A stretch of 64,000 bases of DNA from a virus, in IMG/VR virus record IMGVR_UViG_3300037418_002743, positions 1-64,000 of that record; one strand, 5' to 3'. Position numbers and translations under genes: made by a program. Below are positions 4,556 through 56,751 of the stretch, piece by piece; positions within the stretch are counted from its first letter, which is position 1; the number at the start of each line of letters is the position of its first letter. The notes under the pieces were generated by a model. That model searched no databases and was not told where the DNA came from. It saw only the letters and a list, made by a program, of their open reading frames with translations.

Positions 4556-4571
4556 GCCGCCCCCTCCGCGA

Positions 4572-36565: not shown

Positions 36566-36843
36566 CAGGGCGGTCCTTTCGCTCAGGGGATGGGGTGAAG
36601 GTCGGCGGGGTCCCAGTCGTGCCAGGACTCCCCGGACCGGGAGCGGTGCCCGAGTGAGGGCGGGTGCGATGCCCCGCGACGGCACCGCTCCCGCGGCGCC
36701 CAGGGGCACTCCTGCCGGCACCGCGGGATCGGGGTGATCAGGGCGCGGACGGCCCAGGCGGTGAGCATCACCGCGCCCAGGGCGTAGGCGGCGCGGTCAC
36801 GCGGACCGAGGCGGCTCGACGAGCTCTCCGGCGGGGTCACGGG

Positions 36844-37665: not shown

Positions 37666-37958
37666 GGGATCTTCACCTCCCGCGCGGAGAGCACGGTGCC
37701 GGCGCGGAGCACGGCCTCGTCCAGGGCGACGCGGGCCTCGACGATCGCGACGAGGGCGTGCGCGGCCTCGGTGTCGTGGCGGCCCGCGAGGACGGCCCAG
37801 TCGCACGTGTCGGCGAGGGCGCGGGTGAGCGGGTCGATCGCGGCGGCGACCTGGCCCTGCACGCCGAGGGCGCGGCGGACGGGGTCGGGGTGGTCGAGGA
37901 GGTAGCGGGCTGCCGGGCGGTCTTCGGCCGGCGGCATGGGGAAGTCGATCAGGCTCAT
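37662..37958 (-). CDS. Hypothetical protein
   Basis: CACTGCC-ATG start. Confidence 0.55.
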   Translation of the reverse strand: MSLIDFPMPPAEDRPAARYLLDHPDPVRRALGVQGQVAAAIDPLTRALADTCDWAVLAGRHDTEAAHALVAIVEARVALDEAVLRAGTVLSAREVKIP

Positions 37959-37993
37959 GGCAGTGGCCTTCGAGGGAGGGATGGGATGGAGGG

Positions 37994-38425
37994 TCATGCG
38001 ATGCGGGTGGACTCCCGCTCCCAGGCGGCCGCGAAGGAGGCGGCCCGGGGGTCGTTGGGGCGTCGCTCGGCGTGGACCGCGATGACGCGGCGGACCCCGT
38101 CGGGGGTGTGCCCGAGGGTGCGGGCGAAGCGCGAGGGGGGGTAGCCGAGGGTGAGCCCGAAGTGCTCCCACTCCTGGAGGATGTGGACCGCGTCCATGCC
38201 GCCGCCGAGCTTCGCGGCGGGACCGTCCTCGGGGTGAGCCTTCTTCTGGCGCGTCTCCTGGGTGGCGCGCTGGCATTGCTTGCACTGGTTACTGCTGCCG
38301 GGGAAGTGCTTGTTCACGCAGCGTCGCGTTTGGGTGCGTGAGCGGTGCATCGGCTTGTGGCACTTCGGGCACGTCGTGAGCGTGGCCTCGATACACGGGG
38401 CAGGGGCCAATTTGGGCGCGGTCAT
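37994..38425 (-). CDS. Zinc-finger + HTH-like protein
   Basis: CPKC and CKQC; FARTLGHTPDGVRRVI; CACTGCC-ATG start; promoter at 38489-38516. Confidence 0.55.
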   Translation of the reverse strand: MTAPKLAPAPCIEATLTTCPKCHKPMHRSRTQTRRCVNKHFPGSSNQCKQCQRATQETRQKKAHPEDGPAAKLGGGMDAVHILQEWEHFGLTLGYPPSRFARTLGHTPDGVRRVIAVHAERRPNDPRAASFAAAWERESTRIA

Positions 38426-38488
38426 GGCAGTGACCAGGCCTTTCCGTAGGGAGGGAAGGGGCGGATGGGGTATCGGACTGACTACTCT

Positions 38489-38516
38489 ATGTTACCGCGA
38501 TGTGCGGCGACGTCAA
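38489..38516 (-). promoter_or_regulatory. Operator-containing promoter
   Basis: TTGACG-16 nt (CCGCACATCGCGG)-TAACAT. Confidence 0.7.
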
Positions 38517-38701
38517 CGTTCTGTTCGGTGCTATCGACACTATAGGTGGACGCTATGTAATCCAACCTTTACGGTGCGCGGTGTCATGAGAGCCGTATCT
38601 ATTGCGACGCAGCAACCATCACCACGTGTGAGTGACAAGTCGGAGAGGTGACTCCGGGTCACTCCCCCGGCTTTGCGTGCACCCCGTCCGGTCATACGGT
38701 T

Positions 38702-38729
38702 ACCCTACCGTGTCGTGCGGTAGCGTCAA
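38702..38729 (-). promoter_or_regulatory. Operator-containing promoter
   Basis: TTGACG-16 nt (CCGCACGACACGG)-TAGGGT. Confidence 0.65.
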
Positions 38730-38755
38730 GTGATGATAATTCCGACTGATGCGGA

Positions 38756-38771
38756 TCGAACACGTGTTCGA
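38756..38771. promoter_or_regulatory. Perfect actinobacterial SOS (LexA) box
   Basis: TCGAAC-ACGT-GTTCGA abutting -10 TACAGT (38772-38777). Confidence 0.85.
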
Positions 38772-38783
38772 TACAGTGCTCGG

Positions 38784-39065
38784 GTGCCGCACCCGTACGA
38801 CGAGCGCGCCGCCGCCCAGCGGATCGCGGAGCGCGACTACCTCAACGAGGCCGCTCACCGGCTCCGCCGGCGGGCGATCGCCGACGGGTACGCAGGCATC
38901 CGCGGCCAGGACACCGCCCTTGCCTTCGCCGCGGCGATGGAGTCCTGCGCCCGCGGCTCCGACCCGCGAGGGGACCTCATGAGCGCAGCCCGCCGGATCC
39001 TCGAGGGACCCGACGGGCCGGGAGACGCACGCAGCGGAGGCGCCGCGCTCACGAAGGGCTGGTGA
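38784..39065 (+). CDS. Probable SOS-regulated leaderless hypothetical protein
   Basis: GTG 6 nt after the -10 box; opposite orientation to neighbours. Confidence 0.65.
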   Translation: MPHPYDERAAAQRIAERDYLNEAAHRLRRRAIADGYAGIRGQDTALAFAAAMESCARGSDPRGDLMSAARRILEGPDGPGDARSGGAALTKGW

Positions 39066-39453
39066 GCCGGTCCGCCCGGAGCCCGGGCAACGCCGGACAC
39101 TCCGTTGAGGTGATCCGCAGCTCCGCCGCCTGCACCCACCACTCCCACGCCGCCCGGTCCGGGATGCAGTAGTCCGTCATGATGTCGCCCTCCCGGTCGA
39201 GGACGTCGAGCACGGCATAGTGGTCGCGGCACCTGGATGCGTACGGGCCCGTCGTGGCCGACGCGGTCGACCAGTTCGAGCACCGCACCCCGGCCGCGCG
39301 GGACGCATCAAGCAGTCTCCCCACTGCGTCCAGCCCGGTCGTCTCCAGAACGGCGCGGTAGGCGATTCCGTGGCGCCGCCCGTGCTCCTGGCAGCCGCGG
39401 AAAGCGCCGAAGGTGTAGGCCGCGCGGCCCTCCTCGTTCAGGTCGCGGCTCAT
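39049..39453 (-). CDS. Hypothetical protein
   Basis: ATGA coupling. Confidence 0.5.
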   Translation of the reverse strand: MSRDLNEEGRAAYTFGAFRGCQEHGRRHGIAYRAVLETTGLDAVGRLLDASRAAGVRCSNWSTASATTGPYASRCRDHYAVLDVLDREGDIMTDYCIPDRAAWEWWVQAAELRITSTECPALPGLRADRLTSPS

Positions 39454-39710
39454 GACGCCATCCTGCCGGGCTTCTTGCCGACCGGCGGCCAGACGAGGCC
39501 GGCGCGGCGGAGGTCCGCGATCAGGTTCGCGACGCCGCGGTGATCGGAGTTCGTGCACGGGCACACCGCGACGATCCGGCCGCGCGGGTCCCGGATCCGG
39601 GGGTGCCCGCCGCCCTTGCTCGCGTCGACGGAGAAGCCCTTGCTGACGGCCTCTTGCACTACCCGGCGGGCGTCCTTGTCGCGGATGAGGCGGAGTCCGT
39701 GTCTGCTCAT
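39450..39710 (-). CDS. HicA-like protein
   Basis: GFSVDASKGGGHPRI...TNSDHRGVANLIADLRRAG. Confidence 0.65.
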   Translation of the reverse strand: MSRHGLRLIRDKDARRVVQEAVSKGFSVDASKGGGHPRIRDPRGRIVAVCPCTNSDHRGVANLIADLRRAGLVWPPVGKKPGRMAS

Positions 39711-40069
39711 CGGGCACCGCCGGCGGGGAGCGCGGGCTCCGCGCCGATGACGGAGCCGTCGACGACGGCCGGGTAGCCGTCGAGGCGGAGCCCCTCGACG
39801 AGGCGGGCGACGTCGTCCTCGGACCAGCAGACATGCTCGCGGGCGAACGCGAGGACGTCGGCCATCGTGCGGACCTCGTCGAGGTCGGCGGGGCCGCCGT
39901 ACTCCTCGAACGGGGAGGTGCAGGAGCAGCCGGTCGTCCAGCCGATGAAGTACCGGCCGGCGGCGTCGTCGGCGAAGATCGTGATCTGGTCGTACTCGTA
40001 GCCGCCGATGCGGTCGTGGTTCTTGTGGATCCGCAGGCCGTACTTCTCGGGGTTGAAGTAGAGGTTCAC
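39707..40069 (-). CDS. Hypothetical phage protein
   Basis: YEYD...GCSCTSPFE motif; promoter 40179-40206 and CTGCCA-hairpin leader. Confidence 0.7.
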   Translation of the reverse strand: MNLYFNPEKYGLRIHKNHDRIGGYEYDQITIFADDAAGRYFIGWTTGCSCTSPFEEYGGPADLDEVRTMADVLAFAREHVCWSEDDVARLVEGLRLDGYPAVVDGSVIGAEPALPAGGAR

Positions 40070-40276
40070 GTCTCTCCTCGGGAGGGAAGGGCCGCTGGCA
40101 GGCGGCTCTCTGTCTCTTGTCTACCCGGCGGCACCGACGGTTCCTCCGCCGACGCGCCGGGCCTTTCGTGGTATCTCCACCGTACCGTATGACGCGGCAT
40201 CGTCAACACTTATTAACAACGGTGCCGCCCCCGGCGGGTGCGGGGGCGGCGGGGAGCGGACGGTCCGGGCGCGGCC

Positions 40277-40468
40277 TCAGTGCCGCGCGAGTCGGGAGGC
40301 GAAGAGGTGGTGGTGCTTGACGGCGTGCACCGCGTGGCGGATGTGCTCGACGGTCTCGAAGTGCTCGGGGATCTCGACCAGCTCGAAGTGCAGGATCTCG
40401 ACGTGCAGGAGGTGGCCGAGGAGGAGGGTGGCCAGGAGGAGCAGGGCGGAGGCGATGCCGTTCGTCAT
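40277..40468 (-). CDS. Leaderless His-rich small protein (cassette)
   Basis: ATGACGAAC 6 nt after -10 TAGCTT; -35 TTGTAA at 40497-40502. Confidence 0.7.
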   Translation of the reverse strand: MTNGIASALLLLATLLLGHLLHVEILHFELVEIPEHFETVEHIRHAVHAVKHHHLFASRLARH

Positions 40469-40538
40469 GCCTTAAAGCTACCGCGCGGTGCGGTAGTTAC
40501 AAGGGAAGGCGACGGCTGAGAACGAAGAAAAAGCCTGG

Positions 40539-40787
40539 TCACAGCCCCCTTGACGGGAGCGGCCCATGCTCGTCCGCGTGCCCCCGCGCCGCCTCCGCGT
40601 CAGCGAAGCCGAAGCAGAACGCCGCCTCGACGTCCGGGCCCCGACTCCCCCGCCGCCGGCGCGGTGACGGAGCCTCGACCATCAGCACCCACATCCAGCG
40701 GGAGCCGTCCGGCTTCACCCCGAGCCAGTCGCCGGACGGGAGGTCCCGCCGCCAGTACCCCGGCCGGACCTCCCGCCAGTCGGTCAC
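40539..40787 (-). CDS. Hypothetical protein
   Basis: GTGA coupling. Confidence 0.5.
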   Translation of the reverse strand: MTDWREVRPGYWRRDLPSGDWLGVKPDGSRWMWVLMVEAPSPRRRRGSRGPDVEAAFCFGFADAEAARGHADEHGPLPSRGL

Positions 40788-41218
40788 GCGGGGCGGCCGT
40801 TGGCGTGCGACTCCCGCTCGAGCCGCTCCGCCGGCACGAGCTCCGCCTCCGAGTACGGGCGGCGCACAGCGGCGCGGCGGGCCTGCGCGGAGTGGTACTC
40901 GCGGAGGATCCGGGCCCGGTGCTCCCGGACCTCCGTCGGGAGCCAGTGCAGCTCGCAGGCGACGTTGAGCGGGATCCCCCGCGACTTCGCCCAGTTGGAG
41001 CATTCCGAAGGCCTGTGCGGCTCGTTGACGGAGCGGAGAGGGAGTTCCGGGTAGTGGTCACACTCGGGGCAGCACGGGGTGTGGTGCATCCCCGTGAGCC
41101 CCGAGAGGCATGCTGAGGGGAGCGACGCACACCCGGAGCAGGCCCGCAGGGTCGCGGCGGTCTCGGCGATGAGGATCGGGACGGCCGGCGCGGCGGGCGT
41201 CTCCTGGAGGACGGTCAT
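40784..41218 (-). CDS. Cys-rich hypothetical protein
   Basis: CACTGCC-ATG start; multiple Cys. Confidence 0.6.
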   Translation of the reverse strand: MTVLQETPAAPAVPILIAETAATLRACSGCASLPSACLSGLTGMHHTPCCPECDHYPELPLRSVNEPHRPSECSNWAKSRGIPLNVACELHWLPTEVREHRARILREYHSAQARRAAVRRPYSEAELVPAERLERESHANGRPA

Positions 41219-41300
41219 GGCAGTGGCCTTCTTCGGGAGGGAGTGAGGGGACGAAGAGGGCCCGGCGGCGGTTGGCAGACCGCGCCGGGCCCTTCGTGTG

Positions 41301-41507
41301 TCAGAGGCGGCGGGCGTTCATCCAGTCCGCGCCCCAGCGGGCGGAGCCCTCGGCGCAGAGTCGCAGCCACTGCTCGTTGTTGGTCGTGGCGACGGCGAGG
41401 GCGGCCTCGGAGCCGTCGGCGAAGGCGAGGTCCCGGGTCTCGGCGAGCCCGTCGGCCAGGGCTCCGGCCTCGGCGGCGGTGAGGTTCGCGGTCATCGTGT
41501 TCGTCAT
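41301..41507 (-). CDS. Leaderless small protein (cassette, MTNTMT...)
   Basis: TTGCAG-16 nt-TATGGT-6 nt-ATGACGAAC. Confidence 0.7.
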   Translation of the reverse strand: MTNTMTANLTAAEAGALADGLAETRDLAFADGSEAALAVATTNNEQWLRLCAEGSARWGADWMNARRL

Positions 41508-41547
41508 GTGTTCACCATACCGCGCGGTGCGGGAGCTGCAAGACCTT

Positions 41548-41904
41548 CTATCCGAGGATGTTCCGGCCGTCCGCATCCGCCTCGGCGAGGTAGCGCTGCA
41601 CGTCCTGGATCGCGTGCGCGGCGATGTCGAGGTCGAGGAGCCGACGCACCGGCTCCTTCTCCGCGTCGAGCGCGGCATCCGACACGGCCCGCACCGAGAC
41701 GCGCTCCATGCGGAGCAGGCGGGCCAGGGCGGCGTGTCCGCGCGTCGTCAGCTCCGCCTCGATGTCGACACGACGCCGGCGGGCGGACATCCGGCCCTCG
41801 GTGCGCAGGGAGTGAAGCTCGACGTCGTCGGCGGCCGCCTCCGCGGCGATCGCGGCCCGGTACTCGGCGACGGCGGCGGTGAGGGTGCGCACGGGTGCGG
41901 TCAC
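41548..41904 (-). CDS. Hypothetical helical protein
   Basis: CTGCCA hairpin + CCCTCCC + GAAGGAG leader. Confidence 0.6.
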   Translation of the reverse strand: MTAPVRTLTAAVAEYRAAIAAEAAADDVELHSLRTEGRMSARRRRVDIEAELTTRGHAALARLLRMERVSVRAVSDAALDAEKEPVRRLLDLDIAAHAIQDVQRYLAEADADGRNILG

Positions 41905-41992
41905 GGTGTTCTCCTTCGGGAGGGAAGACGGACGGCCGTGCTGGCAGGCGCGGCCCTCCGGGGTGAGCGTGAGCGGAATCGTGGGGAGTCGG

Positions 41993-42766
41993 CTATGACG
42001 CGGAGCGCACGTGAAGCTTCCCGTCCTCCCCGTGGACGAAGTGCCCGGACTCGCAGAGCTGGGCGATCACCGCGTCAATGCCGTCGGTGCGCTCCAGCAG
42101 GGTGGCGATCGCCGTCTTGCTCGTCCCGCCGTGCCACTCCCCCCGCTCGATCCGCTCCCTGATCTTCGCCACGGTCGCGGCGATGGCCCGCCGACGCTGC
42201 CCGCCGACGATCGCCGCGGCCTCCTCGAGCGACCGCGCCGGAGCGGGCCCGGGCTTCGTCTTGCGGTTGATGCGGTAGGTCTCGACCTGGCTGCGGAGCC
42301 AGTAGCCGTCGAGCACCGGGCGCGGGAAGCCGGTGTTGTCCCGGCCCGCCTTCCGGTCGGACTCCAGCTGGTAGACGCGCTGGCGGGTCACGCCCAGCTT
42401 CTCGGCGAACTCCGCGACGCTCACGACGTCCGGCATCGCGACGGCGTGGAGCCGCTGGGCCACTACCTCATCGGAGGTGAGCTCGACCTGATCCCAGCCG
42501 GTCACGCGGTAGCCGTGCCCGGCGAGGACGCCGACCAGGCAGTTCGCGGCGCGGGTGAGCCGACTGGGCAGCGCGGTGGGCGTGACCTCGTCGTCATCGT
42601 CAATGAGGACCTGGCCCTGCACGAGGTACGCGCCGTCCTGATCGTAGGAGCACATTCCGCCGATGAGCTGGGAGTCGGCAGCCCAGGCGCGGGACAGCGT
42701 CATGGCGGCGTCGGGGTGCATGGGGCGATCAAGGCGGACGCCGAGAGTCAGCGCGTGCGATGTCAT
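41993..42766 (-). CDS. HTH DNA-binding protein (AlpA/excisionase-like HTH)
   Basis: VSVAEFAEKLGVTRQRVYQL...FPRPV...W. Confidence 0.65.
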   Translation of the reverse strand: MTSHALTLGVRLDRPMHPDAAMTLSRAWAADSQLIGGMCSYDQDGAYLVQGQVLIDDDDEVTPTALPSRLTRAANCLVGVLAGHGYRVTGWDQVELTSDEVVAQRLHAVAMPDVVSVAEFAEKLGVTRQRVYQLESDRKAGRDNTGFPRPVLDGYWLRSQVETYRINRKTKPGPAPARSLEEAAAIVGGQRRRAIAATVAKIRERIERGEWHGGTSKTAIATLLERTDGIDAVIAQLCESGHFVHGEDGKLHVRSAS

Positions 42767-42873
42767 GTCAGCATCATCCGGTGTCGCTTTCACATCGTCA
42801 AGCCGGGCTAGGTGCCCGGTTAGGCTGGCCGGGCGGCCGGGGGAGGGTCCCACTCCCCCGACCGCCCGTTCCC

Positions 42874-43131
42874 TCAGTTCATCCCCGGGTCGGGATCGCT
42901 CCCGAGCACCGGCCCCAGCCGGAACCACCTCGGCCCTTCCGCCTCCGCGAAGGAGGCGATGGCTGCCGCAAGCAGCAGCTCAAGCGCCTCGTCCTCGAGG
43001 ACGATCCGGGGGAGGTGCCATGCCGTGCCGGGTACCGCCTTGCTCTGGATCACCAGGTCCTCCTCGTTGAGGTGGAAGGTGTATCCGCGAGCGCGGAGCC
43101 CGAGGACGAACTGATCGGCCAGCTCAGTCAC
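42874..43131 (-). CDS. Hypothetical protein
   Basis: GTG start with AGAGAGGAG RBS. Confidence 0.45.
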   Translation of the reverse strand: MTELADQFVLGLRARGYTFHLNEEDLVIQSKAVPGTAWHLPRIVLEDEALELLLAAAIASFAEAEGPRWFRLGPVLGSDPDPGMN

Positions 43132-43352
43132 TGAGCCGCTCCTCTCTGTTGAGTTATCGCTTACAAGAACTAACGTAAGTCTCGCGGGAGGGTCGCGCAA
43201 GACTTATCTACCGCGCTCTGCGGTAGCGTCCGCACCGTTGGATTGACGGGTAATTAGGACCATGACCTGCGTCAACCAGAGAGAGTCACCGCGTGAGGCC
43301 GGGCGGGTGATCCCGCACCTCCGTCGAGGGGACCGCCCGTCGCCGTCACCGC

Positions 43353-43634
43353 TCACCGGGCACGTTTGATCCCTGCCCGGTCCGCTACCGCCTCCCAGGA
43401 GTCCGCGTGCCCCTCCGCCTGCAGCGCCTGAGCGCGCCGGTAGAGCGCGACCTCGCGGTCCGCGGTCCTGTACTGCCGGGAGGCCGGATCCGCCCCGTCG
43501 CGGCGCGCTGTGGCGTCCCGGAGCCACTCCGCGATCCGCTCCGCCGGGTAGACGTGCGCGATGTTGAGCGCCTGCGCCTCCGCGGTGCGGGCCGCCCGCT
43601 CCGCCATGCGCTCCAGCGCGGTCTTCGCGGGCAT
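43353..43634 (-). CDS. Hypothetical protein
   Basis: TGATG coupling. Confidence 0.5.
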   Translation of the reverse strand: MPAKTALERMAERAARTAEAQALNIAHVYPAERIAEWLRDATARRDGADPASRQYRTADREVALYRRAQALQAEGHADSWEAVADRAGIKRAR

Positions 43635-43831
43635 CACGCGCCCCAGATCGCGACGGCGGAGGCCTCGACGAGGACGGTGTGCCGCCCGTCGGTCACGTAC
43701 ACGCAGCCCTCGTGGGCGTGCGAGTGCACCTCGACGGGCGTGCCGACCATGATCACGCCGTACTTCTCGCCGGGCCGGGCGATCATGATGTCCCGGGTGG
43801 TCTCCCCCGCGAGCATCACCGGCGCGCTCAT
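43634..43831 (-). CDS. Hypothetical protein
   Basis: ATGA coupling. Confidence 0.5.
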   Translation of the reverse strand: MSAPVMLAGETTRDIMIARPGEKYGVIMVGTPVEVHSHAHEGCVYVTDGRHTVLVEASAVAIWGA

Positions 43832-44058
43832 CGCGCACCCGCCGCCGGGTAGAGCCGCGCCATCGTCGTGTGCAGCTCTCCGCCGTGGTCGCGGAGGCTC
43901 AGGCGCGCGAGCTCCTGGACGCGGCCGGTGTGCGGGGACCGGATCGAGAAGACCGCCTCGATGACGACGGGGGCGGGCGCGCCGGAGGGCATGGTCCAGC
44001 CGAGCGGGAGCAGCGCCTCCCAGCGGGGGGCGTGCGGGTCGAGGTCGGTGAGCTGCAT
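43828..44058 (-). CDS. Hypothetical protein
   Basis: CTGCCA hairpin leader and GAAGGAG RBS. Confidence 0.6.
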   Translation of the reverse strand: MQLTDLDPHAPRWEALLPLGWTMPSGAPAPVVIEAVFSIRSPHTGRVQELARLSLRDHGGELHTTMARLYPAAGAR

Positions 44059-44125
44059 GACGGTCTCCTTCGGGGAGGGCCGGGCGCTGGCAGGCGCCCG
44101 GCCGGCGGGAGGGATGAGGGGCGTG

Positions 44126-44476
44126 TCAGGCGGGGTCGACGCCGTAGACGACGGCGCCCGGGTACTCGTCCTCGAACGCCTCTCGGGCGGCGAGGGAGTC
44201 GACCGCGGTCACGGTGGCGATGTCGCGGATGGTGCGGCCGCGGGAGGTCTCGGTGCGGTACCAGACGCGGTAGGGCCGGGGGCCGTTCGCGGCGGCGGCT
44301 CGCTCGGCGGCGGTGAGTTCGTCGGCGATGTGGCCGATCGCGAGGGCGCCGACGGTGCCGGAGGCGACGAGGGCGGCGGCGGTGGCGCGGGCGGCGGCGG
44401 TGGCGCGGAGGTCCTCGCGGAGCTGGGCGGCGGTGCGGGAGGGAAGGGCGGAGGTGGCAGCCTCGGGGTTCGTCAT
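44126..44476 (-). CDS. Leaderless small protein (cassette, MTNPEA...)
   Basis: TTGTGC-16 nt-TATGGT-6 nt-ATGACGAAC. Confidence 0.7.
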   Translation of the reverse strand: MTNPEAATSALPSRTAAQLREDLRATAAARATAAALVASGTVGALAIGHIADELTAAERAAAANGPRPYRVWYRTETSRGRTIRDIATVTAVDSLAAREAFEDEYPGAVVYGVDPA

Positions 44477-44816
44477 GCGTTAACCATACCGCATGACGCG
44501 GTGAGCACAAGGGTGGCGACACCATTGCCGTTCCCCTCCGCACGTCCGGCCCCCATCTCGGTCCGCTCGGAGGGGTGCCATGCCTCCGCCCTTAGGCTTC
44601 CTAGTACGGCGATCAGGAGGGCTCGGGACGGCGTCAGGACGGCCGTCCGCTACTGGTGCACACGCGATGAAGGAGGACGTCTCTCATGACCCACAGACGG
44701 GCCCGGGCCCCGGCCCGGACAGTGAGATCGGGACCGCCCTGGTCCGGCGATCCCGATCTCGGCAAGACGCTCATCGGCACGATCAACCAGGCAGTTTCTC
44801 GAACGGAGGTCTCGCG

Positions 44817-45080
44817 ATGGCGAGAGTACGCAAGGAAGTCAAGCGGGTCGTGGCGCGGCTCCGGCCCACGACGGAGGCGGGCCCGATCGGGTGGCCGGAC
44901 GTGGCCCTGGGCGTGATCGCCCTGCTCGGGCCGCTGCTCGCGACCAGCACGACGGACCCGGCGGCGACGGAGCGGCTCGTGCGGATCCTCCGCTGGGTGT
45001 GCGCGCTCGTCTTCCTGGGCGCGGTCGCCGTGCTGGCGTACCGGCTCCCCTTCGGCGAGCTGGTCACGCTCCTGACCTGA
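44817..45080 (+). CDS. Small two-TM membrane protein (opposite strand)
   Basis: RBS GGAGGT; two TM helices; hairpin at 45098-45134. Confidence 0.6.
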   Translation: MARVRKEVKRVVARLRPTTEAGPIGWPDVALGVIALLGPLLATSTTDPAATERLVRILRWVCALVFLGAVAVLAYRLPFGELVTLLT

Positions 45081-45175
45081 CCCGCCCCGCTCCGGCGCGA
45101 AGGCCCGTCCCCTCTCCCGTGGGGCGGGCCTTCGTCGTGGGGCCGGCGGCTCCCCGAGGAACTTCGACCCGATCT

Positions 45176-45295
45176 TCAACGACGTCGGGCGGCGGCGCGG
45201 AGGTCCCGCAGCTCCGCAAGCTCGGCGTCGGTGAGCCCGCGCCGGCGCATCAGGGCCTCGAGGTCGTCGAGGCGGTCGAGGTCGTCGAGGTCCAT
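45176..45295 (-). CDS. 39-aa peptide (MDLDDLDRLDDLEAL...)
   Basis: CCCTCCC-GAAGGAG leader. Confidence 0.5.
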   Translation of the reverse strand: MDLDDLDRLDDLEALMRRRGLTDAELAELRDLRAAARRR

Positions 45296-45325
45296 GACGG
45301 TCTCCTTCGGGAGGGGCCGGAGCGG

Positions 45326-45547
45326 CTAGAAGCCGCGGTAGGCGTCCTTGACCGCCTCGAATCGATCCCGGAACTCGTTCATGACGCGGAGGTCGCGGCG
45401 GAGCAGGCGGCCGCGCTCCGGGGTCACGACGCCGTTGGGGATCTCGCGGAGCAGGGCGCAGAGGCGCTTGTGCTCGGCCCAGAGGTCGGTGATGGAGAGG
45501 GTGGAGGGGCGGCCGGTGGTCTTGCGGGGCTTCGTGGTGTTCGTCAT
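45326..45547 (-). CDS. Leaderless small protein (cassette, MTNTTK...)
   Basis: TTGTAA-16 nt-TATTGT-6 nt-ATGACGAAC. Confidence 0.7.
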   Translation of the reverse strand: MTNTTKPRKTTGRPSTLSITDLWAEHKRLCALLREIPNGVVTPERGRLLRRDLRVMNEFRDRFEAVKDAYRGF

Positions 45548-45679
45548 GCGTTAACAATACCGCGCTACACGGTAGTTACAAGGGCTGTAGAGCGAGACCG
45601 GTAAAGAAATAACGCGGCCCGGTCCCCCACCAGCCGAGGACCGGGCCGCTCTACCGGCGGGACGCCGCCGGGGCTCACA

Positions 45680-46072
45680 TCACGACAGCTGGAAGACCAG
45701 CTGCGCGGAGTCGATCTCGGAGGAGAAGGAGCGGAGCAGGTGCTTCGCCGCGACCCGGACCGCGGAGCCAGCGGCGTTGGCGAAGGCGGACGACGTCGTC
45801 GCCTCGGAGTCGAGGGCCTGACCGATCCGGCTCGCGAGCGAGTCGCGGCGGCGCTCGGCCGGCGCCTTGAGTGTCGCGGCGAGGATCGCGACCTTCGTCT
45901 CGGCGATCACCGCGTCGCGGAGGTAGTGCTCCGCGGCGTAGACGAGGGACGGGCAGTCGGCGATCATCGCCCGCTGCTTGGTGACGGTCTGCTCGGCGGA
46001 GGCGAGCTGGACCTTGAGCGCGTGCTCGAGCTCGACGTCGGTCAGGGCGGCGGAGGCGGGCTTGGTGCTCAT
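45680..46072 (-). CDS. Hypothetical helical protein
   Basis: Promoter 46134-46161, CTGCCA hairpin, CCCTCCC, AAGGAG. Confidence 0.65.
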   Translation of the reverse strand: MSTKPASAALTDVELEHALKVQLASAEQTVTKQRAMIADCPSLVYAAEHYLRDAVIAETKVAILAATLKAPAERRRDSLASRIGQALDSEATTSSAFANAAGSAVRVAAKHLLRSFSSEIDSAQLVFQLS

Positions 46073-46165
46073 CGAGGTCTCCTTGGTTCGGGAGGGAAGG
46101 GGCCGCTGGCAGGCGGTCCGTCTTACGTTGTTGAGCTTACCGCGGTGCGCGGTGAGTACAAGGGC

Positions 46166-46390
46166 TTATGCCCAGGTGGTTCGGGCCGGGATCTCGACGC
46201 CGTACCGGCGGCCGAGGGCGTGCACGGCGGCCTCGTCGGCGACCCGCTTCGTCCAGAGGTGCACGCCGCCGGTGGCGTTGTAGGCGTCGACGATGAAGCG
46301 CTCGTAGTAGGGGTTCCAAGTCACGTAGGCGAAGGGGAGGGCCGGGGTGCCGTCGTCCTCGATGTCCGGGGTGATGGTGTTCGTCGTCAT
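46166..46390 (-). CDS. Leaderless small protein (cassette, MTTNTI...)
   Basis: TTGATC-16 nt-TATGGT-6 nt-ATGACGACGAAC. Confidence 0.7.
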   Translation of the reverse strand: MTTNTITPDIEDDGTPALPFAYVTWNPYYERFIVDAYNATGGVHLWTKRVADEAAVHALGRRYGVEIPARTTWA

Positions 46391-46420
46391 GACTTCACCA
46401 TACCGCAGCATGCGGGAGGA

Positions 46421-46570
46421 TCAAGCCTTTCGGCGGGAGGTGACCCAGCGGTCGACCTCGACGCCGCGCTCGTACTCGCGGACCTCGAAGTAGACGCGCG
46501 GGTCACCGGCCGGGCCGGCGAGCGGCTCCGGGTCCCGGACGGTGCCGGTGAAGTCGGCGGGGATGTTCAT
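46421..46570 (-). CDS. 49-aa peptide (MNIPADF...)
   Basis: GGAG RBS; stop overlaps the next cassette's -35 box. Confidence 0.45.
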   Translation of the reverse strand: MNIPADFTGTVRDPEPLAGPAGDPRVYFEVREYERGVEVDRWVTSRRKA

Positions 46571-46582
46571 GACGGGCTCCGA

Positions 46583-46885
46583 TCAGGCGGCGTGGAAGGG
46601 GATCTCGGCGCGGGTGCGGCCCCACGCCCCGCCTTGCGCGGCGGTGTGGCGGCGGAGCGCGTCGAGGTTGGCGAAGGCGGCGATGGGGCGGGAGCCGATG
46701 AGCACTTGGACGGTCGCGCCGCCGGGAGTGCCGTGGAGCGGGATCTCGGTGCGGGTGTAGCCGAGGAGCGCGGAGCCGCCGCGGGCGGTCATCCAGCGGC
46801 GCATCGCGGTGATGTCGGCGAAGGCGCGGATGGGGCGGCCGGCGTCGAGGAGGAGGGTCGCGGTGGGGGCTTCAGTGTTCGTCAT
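46583..46885 (-). CDS. Leaderless small protein with internal duplication (cassette, MTNTEA...)
   Basis: TTGAAC-16 nt-TATGGT-6 nt-ATGACGAAC. Confidence 0.7.
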   Translation of the reverse strand: MTNTEAPTATLLLDAGRPIRAFADITAMRRWMTARGGSALLGYTRTEIPLHGTPGGATVQVLIGSRPIAAFANLDALRRHTAAQGGAWGRTRAEIPFHAA

Positions 46886-46959
46886 GTGATTACCATACCG
46901 CGTACCGCGGGAGGTTCAAGCCCTTCGGCCGGGCGGGTTCGCCCGGCCGGGCCGGAGCC

Positions 46960-47262
46960 CTAGTGCCCGAGGCACTTCGCGCAGTCGATCTCGTACCGAG
47001 AGGACACGGCGGAGGCGGCGGAGCGGGCGTTGCGGTAGCGCTCGGCGCCGCAGTAGACGCCCACCGTCTTGCCGACCGACTCCCCGTAGGCGTTGAGGTA
47101 GCGGGTGACCGTGGCGCGGTGCACGGTCTTGGCCTTGCCGACGACCGCGCGGCCGTCGGTGTTCTCCTCGACGGTGACGACCTGCTTGTGCGCCGGCTTG
47201 CCGGCGTCGGCGGCGATCTCGGCGGCGGTGGCGGGGCGGGTGGTGACCGTGGCGTTCGTCAT
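46960..47262 (-). CDS. Leaderless small protein (cassette, MTNATV...)
   Basis: TTGAAA-16 nt-TATCTT-6 nt-ATGACGAAC; H..C..CAKC possible zinc site. Confidence 0.7.
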   Translation of the reverse strand: MTNATVTTRPATAAEIAADAGKPAHKQVVTVEENTDGRAVVGKAKTVHRATVTRYLNAYGESVGKTVGVYCGAERYRNARSAASAVSSRYEIDCAKCLGH

Positions 47263-47292
47263 GTCTTAAAGATACCGCGTCACGCGGGAGTT

Positions 47293-47478
47293 TCAAGCCG
47301 CTGAGGCAAGCCAGGTCCAGAACGCTCGCACCGGCCGGGCGATCGCGTCGCAGACGGCGGCGAGGAAGTGCACGACGTCCGCGCTGAACGCCACGTACGG
47401 GGCGGTGGCCACCGCCGCGACGAGCGCGAGGGCGGCGAGGACCAGGAGGGCGACGGCGGCGCGCTCGGTGGCGTCCAT
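47293..47478 (-). CDS. Small membrane protein
   Basis: GAAGGAG RBS; hydrophobic. Confidence 0.55.
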   Translation of the reverse strand: MDATERAAVALLVLAALALVAAVATAPYVAFSADVVHFLAAVCDAIARPVRAFWTWLASAA

Positions 47479-47504
47479 GACAGGTCTCCTTCGGATGGGG
47501 TCGT

Positions 47505-47735
47505 TCACCGGATGCCGGCGACGTACAGCAGGCCCTCGATGAGCCGGAGCACGAAGACGCCGGCGTCGATGATCGTGTGGCCGATCAGGGTCCACACGGT
47601 CTCGATCATCCCGACGTAGGCGGCCGGGCCGACGATCAGGACGAGGAGCAGGACCGGGAGCAGGCCGAGGCCGGCGGGGGCGACGGCGTCGATGATCGTG
47701 CGGGCGGCGGAGGCGGTGCGTGCGGTGTTCGTCAT
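47505..47735 (-). CDS. Leaderless membrane protein (cassette, MTNTAR...)
   Basis: TTGAAC-17 nt with operator-CAAGCT, then ATGACGAAC. Confidence 0.6.
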   Translation of the reverse strand: MTNTARTASAARTIIDAVAPAGLGLLPVLLLVLIVGPAAYVGMIETVWTLIGHTIIDAGVFVLRLIEGLLYVAGIR

Positions 47736-47819
47736 GCCGTTGAGCTTGCCGCGCGGTGCGGTGTGGTTCAAGAGGTAGTTTCCTCTTGAGTCCGCCGCAT
47801 AGAGCGGTATGGTTGTTGC

Positions 47820-48062
47820 ATGACGACGACGGAGCTTGCCGCGGACCACCTCTCCGACGAGGACTTCGCCCTCGCCGAGCGGATCCTCGACCGCCTCTGC
47901 GCCAAGGGCGACCGGAGGGCGTACAGCCCCTCCGAGATCGGCCGGATCGCGAAGGCCGAGACCTCCGCAGTGCGCCGGGTCCTCCCCGTGCTCGTCGAGG
48001 ACGGGAACCTCGCCGTGGCCGGGAACGGCGCCTGGCGCCGCTACACCTTCGTGATGGGCTGA
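47820..48062 (+). CDS. Leaderless winged-HTH-like protein (divergent cassette, MTTTEL...)
   Basis: TTGAGT(47786)-16 nt (CCGCATAGAGCGG)-TATGGT-6 nt-ATG; SPSEIGRIAKAETSAVRRVL..LV..G. Confidence 0.7.
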   Translation: MTTTELAADHLSDEDFALAERILDRLCAKGDRRAYSPSEIGRIAKAETSAVRRVLPVLVEDGNLAVAGNGAWRRYTFVMG

Positions 48063-48063
48063 C

Positions 48064-48741
48064 CTACCCGCGCTGACGGCGGATCTCGGCGTCCCGCGCG
48101 GCGACCCGGGCCCGCCAGGCGGCCCCGCCGTCCGGCGGCTGCAGGTCCGCGATGAGCTGCTCGATCGGCAGCACCGCCGGCCCCTTCCGCCGCTTCCCGC
48201 GCGGCGCAGTGATCGCCGCCCCGCGCTCCGCGGCCGCCGCCTCCACCGCGGACCGCTTGCCGGCCCGCCGCGGACGGACCTCCACCCGCGGGAGCGGAGG
48301 CGGCGCAGTGCGCTCCTTCGGCTTCCGCGGCTTCGGCTTCGCCCGCGGCGGCGGCGCGCCCTCGATCGGCGGGAGCGGCGTCACGAGCAGCCAGCACCGG
48401 CCCGGCTCACCCTTCACCGGGTCGTGCAGCACCGGCATGTGCTTGCTCATCCGGTACCGGTCATCGTCCGCGACGACGCCGGCGTCGACGAGGCCGTCGC
48501 AGATCGCCTTGTACGTCGCGACCGGGTTCTCCTCGTCGTACACACCGCGGCGCGGGACCTGCCAGTGCAGCTCGACCGCGACCCGCTCATGCGCCCCGAC
48601 GGTGTAGTCCTCCGCGAGCTCCTTCGCCAGGGCCCGGATCTGCTTCGTCAGCTTCGCCGCCGCGTGCCGGTCGTGCCGGTCGTTGAGCGACAGCGGCGGA
48701 CGCTCCCACGGCAGCGGGAGCGTCCACGACTCCGCCGTCAC
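48064..48741 (-). CDS. RusA-like Holliday junction resolvase
   Basis: PPLSLN...DEENPVATYKAICDGLVDAGVVADDD. Confidence 0.75.
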   Translation of the reverse strand: MTAESWTLPLPWERPPLSLNDRHDRHAAAKLTKQIRALAKELAEDYTVGAHERVAVELHWQVPRRGVYDEENPVATYKAICDGLVDAGVVADDDRYRMSKHMPVLHDPVKGEPGRCWLLVTPLPPIEGAPPPRAKPKPRKPKERTAPPPLPRVEVRPRRAGKRSAVEAAAAERGAAITAPRGKRRKGPAVLPIEQLIADLQPPDGGAAWRARVAARDAEIRRQRG

Positions 48742-49133
48742 GCCGCCCCGTTCTCCCGCCCGGCGGCACGCTTCCGGGCCTGCGTCGACCGGCCGCCGTG
48801 CTTCCCCGACTCCCGGGCGTTCGCCTTCCGGGCGCCCTCGGTGCGCTCCTCGTGCAGCAGCGCCCGGGCGTCGACGATCACCTCGCCGAGCAGGCGGTGC
48901 CGGGTCTCCCGGTCCATCAGCGGTGACCGGCGGAGGGCGTCGCCGAACCGGCGGGCGCGGGCGTCCGCGTCGTCCCGGCGGGCCGTCATGAGCACCTGGG
49001 CGAGGCGGAGCGCGCACTCGGTGTGGTGCTGCCAGCAGTCGAGGGAGTGCTCCGCCCGCCAGGCCTTCTTCGACCCGAGCGGGCGGGCGACGACGAGGCC
49101 GAGCTCGGTGGTGGTCGGGGCGGGGTCGGTCAC
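48738..49133 (-). CDS. Hypothetical protein
   Basis: GTGA coupling; GGAGGA RBS. Confidence 0.5.
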   Translation of the reverse strand: MTDPAPTTTELGLVVARPLGSKKAWRAEHSLDCWQHHTECALRLAQVLMTARRDDADARARRFGDALRRSPLMDRETRHRLLGEVIVDARALLHEERTEGARKANARESGKHGGRSTQARKRAAGRENGAA

Positions 49134-49470
49134 CCGTGTCCTCCGGTGATGATCAGGCTCAGGAGCGCGTACTCGAGCCAGAGAGCGATGGGGCCGACGA
49201 CGGCGAGGATCGTGCCGGCGATGAGCGCGGTCTCGATGCGGTGCCGCCAGGGGCTGGGGCACGGGAGGCGGATCCCGGTCGCTTTGCCGCCCAGATTCGC
49301 CGCTGCGCCGCGATCGGGGGTCGGTCGATACTGGGCGGCCGGGAGGATCATCGGAATCGTCAGATCGTCACTGAGCCCGTCGTTCCATGATCCGTTTCCG
49401 CGGTATGGGGTTTCCGTCGATCCCACCGCACGGTGCGGGGTCCTCATCGGACGGCCGGTGACCTGCGGAT

Positions 49471-49926
49471 TCACCTCCGAACCCCGGGCCCACGCATCCA
49501 GCCGGGGGCCTCGTCGACGGACGTGCGCGGCTGCGGGGGCTCCGGCGGGCGCACCTCGTGAGCGGCCTCCAGGCGCGCCAGCTCGGCCCGCTCCGCCTCG
49601 GTGATGTCTCCGGCCCGGACATTCCCGCGCAGCTCCCGGATCCGGATCAGCGCCTCGGTGCGGCGCAGCTCGGTCTCCGCTCCGGCGGACACGGTCGCCG
49701 GGATGAGCCCGCGGTCGCGGTCGGTGAGCCCGGGCAGCTCGACACCGGCGTCCTTGAGCCGGTGATCGTGCGCGGGGAACCACTCCAGGGGGCGGCCGTG
49801 CGCGTCGACGCAGACGGCCCCGATCGCGGCGCCGCAGTCGCGGCAGACGACGCGCATCGAGTCGCGGCGGGCCTGGGCGAGCAGCTCGGACCGGCGGCGG
49901 GGCGTCTCGGTGGTCACGACGCCCAC
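49471..49926 (-). CDS. Hypothetical zinc-finger protein
   Basis: CRDCGA..G..C...H motif. Confidence 0.55.
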   Translation of the reverse strand: MGVVTTETPRRRSELLAQARRDSMRVVCRDCGAAIGAVCVDAHGRPLEWFPAHDHRLKDAGVELPGLTDRDRGLIPATVSAGAETELRRTEALIRIRELRGNVRAGDITEAERAELARLEAAHEVRPPEPPQPRTSVDEAPGWMRGPGVRR

Positions 49927-50228
49927 CGGGCGCGGTCGGAGTTCGGGGTGACGCCGAGGTCGCGGAGCGGGACCTCGCGGCGCTGGAGCGAGCCGGTGAT
50001 CGCGCAGACGACGTGGAAGTACTCGCCGTCAAGCGAGCGGACGACGCCCTGCCCGACGGTGATCCTCGGGACGCGGCAGTGCGGGTTCTCGCATCCGCCG
50101 GCGTAGACGGCGGTGAAGGGCTGGTCCTCGAGGAGGGTCGCGACGACGTAGTCCGGAGGGGGCGGCGGGGCCTGCACCGGGACGGGCCTCTCCGGGACGA
50201 ACGGGCGGCGGGCGTTGCGACCGGGCAT
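49914..50228 (-). CDS. Hypothetical protein
   Basis: CTGCCA hairpin leader and GAAGGAG RBS. Confidence 0.55.
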   Translation of the reverse strand: MPGRNARRPFVPERPVPVQAPPPPPDYVVATLLEDQPFTAVYAGGCENPHCRVPRITVGQGVVRSLDGEYFHVVCAITGSLQRREVPLRDLGVTPNSDRARWAS

Positions 50229-50284
50229 GGCGGTCTCCTTCGGTCGGGAGGGAACGGGTGGCGCCCTGGCAGGGGCGGGGAGGG

Positions 50285-51208
50285 TCAGACGGCGCGGAGG
50301 CGGCGGAGTCCGTGATCGCAGCGGACGGCCGGGTCGACGGGTGGTCCGCCGGCGTACTCCAGGACCCACGTGCCGTCGCAGCGGCCGCGCTCGGTGCACG
50401 CGGCGACGGCGGCGTCGTACTCGGCGAGCTCGGCGGCGCGGGAGGCGGCGGCTTCGTGCTCGGAGGTCTCGGCGCCCTCGCGGAGCGCGGCGCACTCTCC
50501 GCACGGCGGGACGTAGGCGCCGGGAGGCAGGGAGGCGTGCTCGGGACAGCGGCCGGGGTTGCGGCGAGGCGAGACGGACGCGGGCCAGATCGACGCCTGG
50601 GCGGGGTCCGTCGCGCGCGACGCGCCCGCGTTACCCAGGTGACGTTCCCTCCCTACTGAACCCTTCTTCTCTCCTCTCCTCTCCTCTGCGATCGGTTTGC
50701 GATCGGTTTGCGATCCCGAGTGCGATCCCATCTGCGATCGCACGTGCGACGGCTCCTGCGATCCCCTCCCGGGGTCGTCCTCGACGCAGAACTTGCAGTC
50801 AGGGGACGTCTTACCTGCGCGAACGTGCCAGCGCATGTGGTTGCCGTAGCCGCCGGCGGCCCTCTTCGTCGACGTAAATTCCGCCGCCTCTTCCGCGGAA
50901 CGCTGCCAGTCCAGGTAGTCGTGCATGACGACGCCATCACGACGAGATTCCGTCGAGATTCCATCGTCAGCACGCGGGAAGACCTCGTCGGCGAGCCCGG
51001 CCTCGATCAGCTCCCGGCGCACCTTCGGCGTCGTCCGCTTGATCCACGCCTGCTCCGTCACGTACCCGTCGGTGAGGTGCCGGGAGCAGTAGCACCACAG
51101 CTCGATCAGCGTGCGGAAGGCGCGATCGGAGAGCCCCTCGATCTTCGGGTGGTCCGGCATCCCGTCGTGGAGGAACATCCACGAGGCGGTGTCGCGGCGC
51201 GTCCCCAT
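50285..51208 (-). CDS. RepA-like replication initiator
   Basis: HDGMPDHPKIEGLSDRAFR..IELWCYCSRHLTDG...HDYLDWQRS; internal iterons; EERRGE linker. Confidence 0.8.
   Translation of the reverse strand: MGTRRDTASWMFLHDGMPDHPKIEGLSDRAFRTLIELWCYCSRHLTDGYVTEQAWIKRTTPKVRRELIEAGLADEVFPRADDGISTESRRDGVVMHDYLDWQRSAEEAAEFTSTKRAAGGYGNHMRWHVRAGKTSPDCKFCVEDDPGRGSQEPSHVRSQMGSHSGSQTDRKPIAEERRGEKKGSVGRERHLGNAGASRATDPAQASIWPASVSPRRNPGRCPEHASLPPGAYVPPCGECAALREGAETSEHEAAASRAAELAEYDAAVAACTERGRCDGTWVLEYAGGPPVDPAVRCDHGLRRLRAV
50687..50765. repeat. Iteron-like TGCGATC repeats (probable origin)
   Basis: Seven TGCGA(TC) units at 11-12 bp spacing inside the initiator gene. Confidence 0.75.
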
Positions 51209-51615: not shown

Positions 51616-51694
51616 GACACGTCCAGGGGTAGGGAGGGACGGGGCGTGCCGCCCGGCTGGCAGGCCGGGCGGCACGATCGTGCTGAGGGGGGTT

Positions 51695-56603: not shown

Positions 56604-56751
56604 GCTCGGGCCCCGCACATCGGCTCGGCGTCCTCGTCGAGGTGCTCCGTGCAGTGGTGGCACGGGGCGGAGACGAAGCACGTGCAGCCGCCGCAGTCGG
56701 CGAACTCGTCGCGGTCGTCCAGGTCGGTCCAGTCGTCCTCGGGCACGTCGA

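Follow-up and report, generated by a model that had tools for sequence, protein, structure and literature searches.

A repeated, putative promoter-operator unit with predicted leaderless starts in front of small ORFan operons of an uncultured temperate phage

Early promoters of phage phiC31 contain 17-bp conserved inverted repeats. Stoperator regulons are known from Cluster A mycobacteriophages and R4-like Streptomyces phages (PMC9283540, PMC6550527, PMC10276819), and leaderless mRNAs have been described in Actinobacteria, for example in the M. smegmatis transcriptome (PMC5741613). In the T4-type phages RB49 and phi1, promoter-early stem-loops (PeSLs) act as mobile regulatory cassettes, and a unit can recombine with its neighbor to give minicircles (Arbiol et al. 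2010, PMC2839356; Comeau et al. 2014, PMC4122927).

Here we analyze a comparable arrangement in a 105,275-bp IMG/VR record of an uncultured, temperate soil phage from high-GC bacteria. The window, i.e., the whole stretch of DNA that was analyzed (64,000 nt), corresponds to positions 1-64,000 of this record. The initial annotation had put forward an array at 40-48 kb as its best candidate for an undescribed system; however, promoter-stem-loop units that shuffle small early ORFans had already been published for T4-type phages (PMC2839356).

Anatomy, copy number and putative regulator of the unit

The unit is approximately 45-50 bp long and combines promoter, operator and translation start. [quoted passage not shown] Nine leaderless heads had been reported for the array, and all were recovered by pattern matching or inspection in the 40.3-48.1 kb region, compared to none in shuffled sequence. 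A 43-nt search pattern (CTTG..CCG..GCGGTA..T..ATGACGA, up to three mismatches allowed) had nine matches in the window and 0 in 100 shuffles. Eight of these were the heads at 40468, 41507, 44476, 45547, 46390, 46885 and 47262 on the minus strand and 47820 on the plus strand; the remaining match, at 15850, was a chance-like site.

The family is not confined to the array, as had first been thought. The position weight matrix (PWM) that the initial annotation suggested was built and run on the genome, and it revealed a genome-wide family of 20 strong units from 24276 to 76801 (scores 30-45; best shuffle, 12.8), as well as two sites, 43209 and 67255, that have the operator alone. Overall, 24-77 kb of the genome carries at least 20 promoter-operator units. 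TTG, CCG, CGGTA and the last T of the -10 box were invariant across the 20 aligned heads. Judged by the PWM, this is a sigma-70-like promoter motif in many copies, and about twenty copies are predicted to run the small, presumably early ORFan genes of this phage. The 45-50-bp heads make up roughly 3% of the region.

Heads occurred only at 24-77 kb, in front of ORFans and in a variable region where genes are not shared with the relatives G001 and G002. The last head in the direction of transcription (24249-24276, minus strand) marks the border between this region and a block common to G001. Several heads are leadered, including those at 46161 and 40206 within the stretch. The latter (40179-40206, minus strand) is of the TTGACG type and opens the operon next to the array. 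Other leadered family heads were found on the minus strand at 38702-38729 and 38489-38516, and one at 57211-57238 (minus strand) lies upstream of an operon for a RecE-like exonuclease.

The spacer is taken up by a 17-bp dyad (TACCGC-N5-GCGGTA), the final TA of which also belongs to the -10 box in every unit, so that a conserved dyad overlaps the promoter core. The three inner arm pairs were identical in 20/20 copies, and the central 5 nt varied. The most suitable reading of the unit is a promoter for the primary sigma factor of the host, combined with a 17-bp dyad operator. Host RNA polymerase with the primary sigma factor would read TTGnnn, 16 nt and TAnnnT, and a dimeric phage DNA-binding protein probably binds the dyad and thereby occludes the ~20 promoters simultaneously, whether in the lysogen or to shut them off early. 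Since one site is repeated ~20 times, one protein would silence the whole set. On balance, we favor the view that each head serves a temperate actinophage as a compact promoter that can be repressed.

[quoted passage not shown] As has been proposed for PeSL stem-loops, the palindrome might attenuate or terminate read-through from the upstream cassette rather than serve as a protein operator, making the unit a terminator-promoter insulator. Upstream stop codons just before the palindrome, two heads flagged by a simple terminator scan (47287-47275 and 47794-47808) and two hairpins that beat shuffles (head 40502, z = -2.1; head 46161, z = -3.5) would fit this function. However, the stem is a dyad of only 4-6 bp that looks more operator-like, and RNA hairpins of the heads are weak (-7 to -12 kcal/mol), most of them folding no better than shuffles. 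It is the sequence of the arms that is conserved, without a compensatory change in any of the 20 copies, long-stem terminators are used where needed (e.g., 45649-45614), and copies of the operator occur where no upstream gene ends, such as that at 43209. These observations make attenuation an improbable role.

With regard to the protein that reads the dyad, the best candidate is P0001, an 80-aa winged-helix protein predicted from fold and position to bind the palindrome. Its gene (47820-48062, plus strand) is leaderless and is transcribed divergently, away from the array. P0001 matched phrog_7658 and had 17 detectable relatives, in which sub-threshold IclR/MarR HTH hits were observed. Its AlphaFold model (pLDDT 85) has an H-H-H-wing topology, and the nearest folds, with weak E-values, were TubR, AspA and MarR-type winged helices. 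The head of this gene (47786-47828, plus strand) consists of TTGAGT, an imperfect and weaker operator GCCGC-N5-GCGGTA, TATGGT, 6 nt and ATGACGACG. Back-to-back with it is the first array head (47727-47771, minus strand), which had been singled out as the variant copy; its 17-nt spacer and CAAGCT -10 box were confirmed, and its operator is also weakened (right half-site GCGGCA). The -35 boxes of the two heads form an 8-bp inverted repeat (47768-47775/47782-47789), and the 86-bp control region between the two ATGs is two-fold symmetric.

Because this regulator is only a candidate, the motif is absent from two related phages whose structural genes are similar, and its source was not detected elsewhere, the dyad might be thought to be read by a host transcription factor or a phage activator instead of a phage repressor. 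We regard this as quite unlikely: none of 185,579 species genomes and none of the metagenome contigs had the exact head pattern in several copies, only chance single hits being obtained, and a site that covers the -10 box and spacer is placed as expected for a repressor and not for an activator.

Leaderless starts and the genes behind the heads

Ten heads have a -10 box 6-7 nt before the start codon and no Shine-Dalgarno (SD) sequence, the gap being 6 nt in nine of them and 7 nt in one. A gap of 6 nt leaves no room for an SD sequence, which bears out its reported absence, and the transcript is expected to begin at the A of ATG and would be translated without a leader. Motif and spacing thus support the proposed anatomy of promoter, operator and leaderless start. 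Seven heads read ATGACGAAC (MTN), as had been noted; head 46390 reads ATGACGACGAAC and head 47820 reads ATGACGACGACG. In the 105-kb genome, ATGACGAAC occurs 11 times (~0.2 expected), and 8 of the 11 occurrences follow a head. This A-rich, low-GC opening, ATGACGAAC(AC), belongs to the unit and not to individual proteins, and it probably leaves the 5' end unstructured for ribosome loading. Homologs of P0008, P0010-12, P0014, P0017, P0018, P0019 and P0004 on other contigs also start with MTN or MTT. Gene callers chose a wrong start for at least one ORF, that of the 74-aa cassette, which is recorded as 81 aa, and two more ORFs are on record without their leaderless starts.

ORFs behind the shared head are mutually unrelated, as the initial annotation had stated (BLASTP, no pair below E = 0.03), and those abutting the -10 box are coding-like, with GC3 of 0.94-0.99. 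The cassette proteins had no Pfam family match and almost no PHROG match. For the immediate-early host-takeover or anti-defence roles that had been suggested, no family, defence-library or atlas match was obtained. The description of self-contained mini-genes holds for some heads, but many heads drive operons of 2-4 genes, in which later genes carry SD sites, so not all are single mini-genes. Upstream genes were found to end in or beside the next -35 box at the three stops previously listed (47293, 46421 and 46166) and also at 41548.

The order of features in the array, which is read on the minus strand, illustrates this mixture. Behind the first head is a two-ORF operon (47293-47735) of a leaderless 76-aa membrane-like protein (47735-47505) and an SD-led 61-aa membrane-like protein (47478-47293), the TGA stop of which is within the next -35 box. 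The following unit (46960-47296) has a head at 47296-47254 and a leaderless 100-aa ORF (MTN...). A head at 46919-46877 is followed by another leaderless 100-aa ORF, which has an internal two-fold repeat, and by an SD-led 49-aa ORF whose TGA stop is in the next -35 box (whole unit, 46421-46919). The head at 46424-46382 and its leaderless 74-aa ORF form a strain-specific cassette (46166-46424). The leadered head at 46161-46134 has a leader with a CUGCCA-loop hairpin, a CCCUCCC box and an SD site; it precedes a 130-aa ORF (46072-45680), after which there is a strong intrinsic terminator at 45649-45614 (whole unit, 45614-46161). In the unit at 45176-45581, the head (45581-45539) is followed by two ORFs, of which the first (73 aa) is leaderless and the second (39 aa, 45295-45176) is SD-led.

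At this point the array is interrupted by a plus-strand inserted gene for a membrane-like product (44580-45080, within 44391-45192). It resumes with a head at 44510-44468, a leaderless 116-aa ORF and three SD-led ORFs (44058-43828, 43831-43634 and 43634-43353) preceded by a CUGCCA hairpin leader (whole unit, 43353-44510). The perfect operator copy TACCGC-N5-GCGGTA at 43209-43225, to which no strand was assigned, has no matching -35 box and is located in a 143-bp intergenic segment. A second interruption is a lower-GC two-gene module (41993-43131, minus strand) encoding an 85-aa protein and a 257-aa protein, for which weak HTH hits were obtained; the module has a promoter of its own (42801-42773) that lacks the palindrome. 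The minus-strand region 40539-41904 comprises an SD-led 118-aa ORF, a head (41541-41499), a leaderless 68-aa ORF and, behind it, SD-led ORFs of 144 aa (Cys-rich) and 82 aa. The head at 40502-40460 is followed by a leaderless 63-aa ORF with a hydrophobic N-terminus and a His-rich tail (whole unit, 40277-40502).

Strain variation at the heads

Variants ~98.5% identical to this phage were detected in other metagenomes, and breakpoints were taken from alignment coordinates of one 38.5-kb variant contig and part of a second run. In a variant, 204 other nt take the place of window positions 46146-46383, a 238-nt segment that forms the body of the 74-aa cassette; one breakpoint coincides with the end of ATGACGA and the other falls within the next head. 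The 74-aa protein was seen on the present contig only, and its neighbors were also seen on a 104,644-bp variant. In addition, the variant lacks 44391-45192, and variants have 20 nt in place of the 143-bp segment around 43209. Within one gene family, the MTN head was present at three N-terminal junctions, one of which aligned to an internal LTD; in the variant, a single 136-aa MTN protein has an N-terminus with homology to the 39-aa ORF at 45295-45176. Candidates for motif-bounded indels and replacements, as judged from alignment coordinates, are the swap at 46146-46383 and head gain, loss and re-attachment in one family.

Modular exchange at the head had been suggested in the initial annotation. 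One exact replacement and the three junctions in one family agree with it, but only one of the five structural differences between window and variant is a clean head-to-head replacement, the other four being located elsewhere and not simple swaps. It is possible, although we do not favor it, that heads are kept only as promoters and operators, and that strain differences are ordinary indels in which heads have no role in recombination: most of the five differences are of this less regular kind, heads share only short exact runs, and intergenic junctions tolerate indels anyway. However, ordinary indels would not readily account for a replacement with one end exactly at ATGACGA and the other within the next head, or for an MTN start at three positions of one family, including the internal LTD. 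Distant heads also share identical, non-essential central spacers, implying copying: head 47296 has the central spacer of head 69234, and head 45581 and the head at 61382-61409 (minus strand), which are 16 kb apart, have operators that agree fully, the central 5 nt included. Head similarity decreased with genome distance (rho -0.28, permutation p 0.012), although clustering of leaderless heads may explain this trend.

The aligned sequences support head-linked modular exchange. Heads would be portable sites at which small ORFan operons are gained, lost, replaced or given a new head, most likely by recombination at short homologies. As head copies are only ~60-75% alike, with exact runs of 9-23 nt, classical homologous recombination between heads is not assured. 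RecET had been proposed as the agent; of this pair, a RecE-like exonuclease was identified, whereas a RecT-type annealase was not recognized. A speculative possibility is that the head works as a portable module for leaderless expression, of which the start codon and the two or three codons after it (MTN) form part. A similarly speculative extension is that this MTN module can be grafted in frame before or into coding sequences at short ATGACGAAC matches, as at the internal LTD of the 136-aa family. If so, grafting would split, truncate or re-head genes and give birth to small proteins under one repressor, and could be a general way for genes to arise and regulons to expand in high-GC phages.

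Comparison with integrons, leaderless mRNAs, stoperators and PeSLs

The array resembles an integron in being a same-strand series of small, unrelated, exchangeable genes, and it had been called integron-like. Cassettes flanked by a repeated 17-bp dyad, with content that varies between strains, could suggest that a dedicated site-specific recombinase inserts and excises them at the palindrome. However, no IntI, attI or attC-like site and no array-linked recombinase were found, and no serine recombinase was recognized in the genome. The sole tyrosine integrase (14687-15679), which is of the phage type, adjoins tRNA-Gln, 25 kb from the array, and is common to relatives that lack the motif; together with ParA, it indicates from gene content that the phage is temperate. 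Moreover, integron cassettes are promoterless and end in attC, whereas each cassette here has its own promoter, and the only repeat, the palindrome, lies inside that promoter and not at cassette ends. We consider an integron-like mechanism extremely improbable; cassettes are probably exchanged by general or short-homology recombination.

Leaderless actinobacterial mRNAs likewise have TAnnnT 6-7 nt before ATG or GTG and no SD sequence (PMC5741613). The difference is that the first 9-11 transcribed nt (ATGACGAACAC) are conserved here across unrelated genes as a repeated module. Stoperator regulons share with this phage a short site that is present ~20 times across non-structural genes of a temperate actinophage. 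However, stoperators are asymmetric 13-14-bp sites that are bound by a monomer and mostly block elongation, whereas the site described here is a symmetric dyad built into each promoter, and its repressor is a candidate only.

The closest likeness is to PeSLs. [quoted passage not shown] Both sets of units are clustered in a variable region before small ORFans. At PeSLs, insertions, deletions and replacements occur between close relatives, which may also be the case at the heads. In contrast to PeSLs, in which an SD site and start codon form the 3' end, the unit has only 6 nt from the -10 box to ATG and no SD site, and it extends over the start codon and two further codons. It also has one conserved 17-bp operator-like dyad instead of a variable G/C stem, and it occurs in a temperate phage unrelated to T4, with a high-GC actinobacterial host.

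In this array, a ~45-50-bp unit would place about 20 fast-changing ORFan operons under one switch. In Streptomyces-type hosts, the unit could serve as a ready-to-use, repressible part for leaderless expression, and its 17-bp dyad is a specific bait for finding the regulator. The principle of mobile promoter cassettes was established in T4-type phages, and the leaderless actinophage version extends it.

Distribution and classes of the head unit

The initial annotation described nine short ORFs, each following the same promoter-operator unit (the head, 45-50 bp), and all nine heads were found where it had placed them. The leaderless unit reads TTGnnn, 3 nt, CCGC-N5-GCGG, TAnnnT, 6 nt and ATGACGA; a 43-nt degenerate pattern gave 9 matches, versus 0 in 100 shuffles. 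In addition, ATGACGAAC occurred 11 times genome-wide against approximately 0.2 expected, and a head preceded 8 of these 11 copies. A PWM built from the units recovered 20 strong copies between 24276 and 76801, with scores of 30-45 (best shuffle, 12.8), as well as operator-only copies at 43209 and 67255. The array proposed at 40277-48062 is real, but it is only the densest part of a genome-wide head family.

Heads fell into two classes. Ten were leaderless, and their -35 box was mostly TTGTAn or TTGAAn. The rest combined a consensus TTGACN -35 box with a leader that contained a CUGCCA-loop hairpin, a CCCUCCC box and a Shine-Dalgarno (SD) site. Each cassette starts with a head, but not all are single mini-genes: most heads serve 2-4 genes, the later of which are SD-led.

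A second repeated signal, in which a hairpin of variable stem and CUGCCA loop precedes first a CCCUCCC box and then a ribosome-binding site, was observed on the minus strand at 24221, 40101, 41278, 41947, 44093, 50272, 51663, 57175 and 58729, and outside the window at 64616. It was present behind every leadered head and also within operons, and matched no Rfam family. The CCCUCCC box resembles an anti-SD sequence and could pair with the SD.

The head-borne ORFs had GC3 values of 0.94-0.99, and no similarity was found among them. Cassette proteins had no match in Pfam, PADLOC or the ESM Atlas, and almost none in PHROGs. Of the 74-aa cassette ORF, only an 81-aa form (46166-46411) has been recorded; therefore, a gene caller placed its start upstream of the leaderless ATG. 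No exact sequence was on record for the 76-aa and 116-aa leaderless forms or for a longer 114-aa ORF (47505-47849), and these starts may be mis-called too. The array also includes a lower-GC module of two minus-strand genes (43131-41993, within a stretch spanning 41993-43340) that code for an 85-aa protein and a 257-aa protein, the latter with weak HTH hits. The module, which may be expressed while heads are repressed, is served by a separate promoter (TTGACG at 42801) without the palindrome.

The full virus record is 105,275 bp long (CheckV completeness 92%), with the window as its first 64 kb; its G+C content is 72% and the minus strand carries nearly all genes. Structural and packaging genes (major head protein, portal and large terminase) occupy 79-9667, and further structural genes 84-105 kb. 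Among the products of the non-structural block (24-77 kb) are a RecE-like exonuclease (55509-56762), a RusA-like resolvase (48064-49017), a DnaQ-like exonuclease, DUF2303 and DUF932 proteins, an FtsK/TraB-like protein and ParA. A tyrosine integrase (14687-15679) adjoins tRNA-Gln(CTG) (15773-15848) and the phage is therefore temperate; the stretch 14687-15848 is probably the attP region. Although temperate, the phage also has ParA and an FtsK/TraB-like gene beyond the window. The tRNA was the sole match in the Rfam search. ARAGORN also called a tRNA at 12318-12402 (-) with a CTA anticodon, labelled Pyl (amber-reading), which was unconfirmed by Rfam at gathering score.

No similar phage was found in the GenBank phage collection, the best identity of the large terminase subunit to any GenBank phage being at most 35%, and no relatives of the RecE-like protein were found in viral_contigs. 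The exact head pattern was absent from viral_contigs, and genome_contigs and metagenome_contigs yielded single chance hits only, without a -35 box. Two IMG/VR relatives found via the capsid protein, G001 and G002, shared 65-80% nucleotide identity in structural genes; neither the palindrome nor any comparable repeated dyad was found in them.

The putative operator dyad and a candidate regulator

Primary-sigma promoters of high-GC Gram-positive bacteria match the -35 and -10 hexamers of the head and its 16-nt spacing. Because 6 nt separate the -10 box from the ATG, the transcript of a leaderless head should start on the A of the ATG. Within the spacer is a 17-bp dyad, TACCGC-N5-GCGGTA, and the final TA of this dyad opens the -10 box. 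Among the 20 copies, the three inner pairs of the arms were invariant and the central five bases were free to vary. Conservation of the arm sequence, half-sites one turn apart and overlap with the -10 box suggest that the dyad is a site for a putative dimeric repressor. A stem-loop in the transcript, as proposed for the promoter-early stem-loops (PeSLs) of T4-type phages, appears less likely: no compensatory changes were present in arm pairs among the 20 copies, and folded as RNA the dyad was a weak hairpin (-7 to -12 kcal/mol), mostly not above shuffled sequence.

The best candidate for a protein that reads the dyad is P0001, an 80-aa protein encoded at 47820-48062 (+) behind its own head, back-to-back with the first array head. 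Together, the -35 boxes of the two heads make up an 8-bp inverted repeat; the interval of 86 bp separating the two ATGs has two-fold symmetry, with both operators imperfect (GCCGC...GCGGTA and CACCGC...GCGGCA). The predicted structure of P0001 is a confident winged helix (pLDDT 85), its closest solved folds being TubR, AspA and MarR-type DNA binders, with weak E-values; its relatives had sub-threshold IclR and MarR HTH hits. The divergent symmetric head region, the winged-helix model and the HTH hits of relatives together suggest this assignment. No parallel operator family was found at the three loci of distant P0001 relatives (L030-L032).

Two other proteins remain alternatives as dyad readers: the 257-aa weak-HTH protein (42766-41993), whose promoter is without the palindrome, and an HTH_31-DUF5753 protein at 75.5-76.4 kb. 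The latter is the last gene of a three-gene module in L009, a locus beyond the window (L009:10560-12393; genome 74.56-76.39 kb, +), which resembles accessory modules often found in Streptomyces genomes. Repeated TATGCAC motifs were observed upstream of this module. Elsewhere in L009, a divergent control region that separates minus-strand from plus-strand genes (L009:3248-3334; genome 67248-67334) contains two perfect operators spaced 56 bp apart, and may be a second switch region.

Strain variation and proposed exchange at the heads

This DNA, or roughly half of the words sampled from it, was also present in three other soil/rhizosphere metagenome runs. Strains were compared by aligning one 38.5-kb contig of one run to window positions 36000-52000 (approximately 98.5% identity), and five structural differences were identified: (a) in place of 43210-43352 (143 nt), where the operator at 43209-43225 sits, the variant has 20 nt; (b) for 44391-45192 (802 nt) it has just 28 nt; (c) for 45279-45317 (39 nt) it has 125 nt; (d) for 46146-46383 (238 nt), the body of the leaderless 74-aa cassette, it has 204 nt; and (e) at 48820-49046 the two sequences are equally long (227 nt) but could not be aligned.

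The breakpoints of difference (d) were exactly the last base of ATGACGA and a position inside the operator of the next head. The 74-aa protein had no detectable homologue and was present on this contig alone, whereas all its neighbours were also on a 104,644-bp variant contig.

Protein comparison accounts for differences (b) and (c). The variant counterpart is a single 136-aa protein beginning MTN. The N-terminal part of this protein is represented in the window by an SD-led 39-aa ORF, after which come a terminator, a plus-strand gene and a new head; from this head the rest of the protein starts afresh, as a 116-aa MTN form. The plus-strand gene (44580-45080) has a membrane-like product and terminator-like hairpins on both sides; since it is missing from the variant, it behaves like a moron-type insertion by which a gene was split. 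In a third relative the protein is 105 aa long, 74% identical, with its MTN start at another point again. The MTN of both short forms aligns with an internal LTD of the 136-aa form. Given three MTN positions in one family, the head and first codons appear to have been attached at three different junctions.

Central spacers, whose identity the dyad itself does not require, were identical in distant heads (45581 and 61409; 47296 and 69234). Head similarity dropped with genome distance (rho -0.28, permutation p 0.012), and heads were confined to the part of the genome whose genes are not shared with G001 and G002. In line with these patterns, one clean replacement and one re-headed gene family support the earlier suggestion that heads would serve as junctions of modular exchange.

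Comparison with known systems

The head array is a real, well-defined regulatory and evolutionary module: the initial observation is confirmed, and its interpretation as a whole is partly supported. The array is not integron-like: it shows no equivalent of IntI, attI or attC, and every cassette carries a promoter of its own.

No description of this leaderless head array was found in literature searches. However, it had been put forward as an undescribed system, and the same principle is already published for PeSLs (PMC2839356; PMC4122927). These occur at about 50 copies per genome in T4-type phages RB49 and phi1 and combine a sigma-70-like early promoter with a stem-loop (PMC2839356; PMC4122927), located mostly between -35 and -10 or over the -10 box (PMC2839356). 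The PeSL unit is preceded by an upstream stop codon and ended by a downstream start codon; PeSLs cluster ahead of ORFans in hyperplastic regions, and close relatives differ by insertions, deletions and replacements that PeSLs mediate (PMC2839356). In contrast to PeSLs, the present array is leaderless, with the first three codons belonging to the module, has one sequence-conserved dyad, is combined with a second, leadered head class and resides in a temperate high-GC phage. It is also similar to the many-operator immunity regulons of actinophages, of which the stoperators in Cluster A and R4-like phages are an example (PMC9283540; PMC10276819); unlike the symmetric dyad described here, stoperators are asymmetric and act mostly on elongation.
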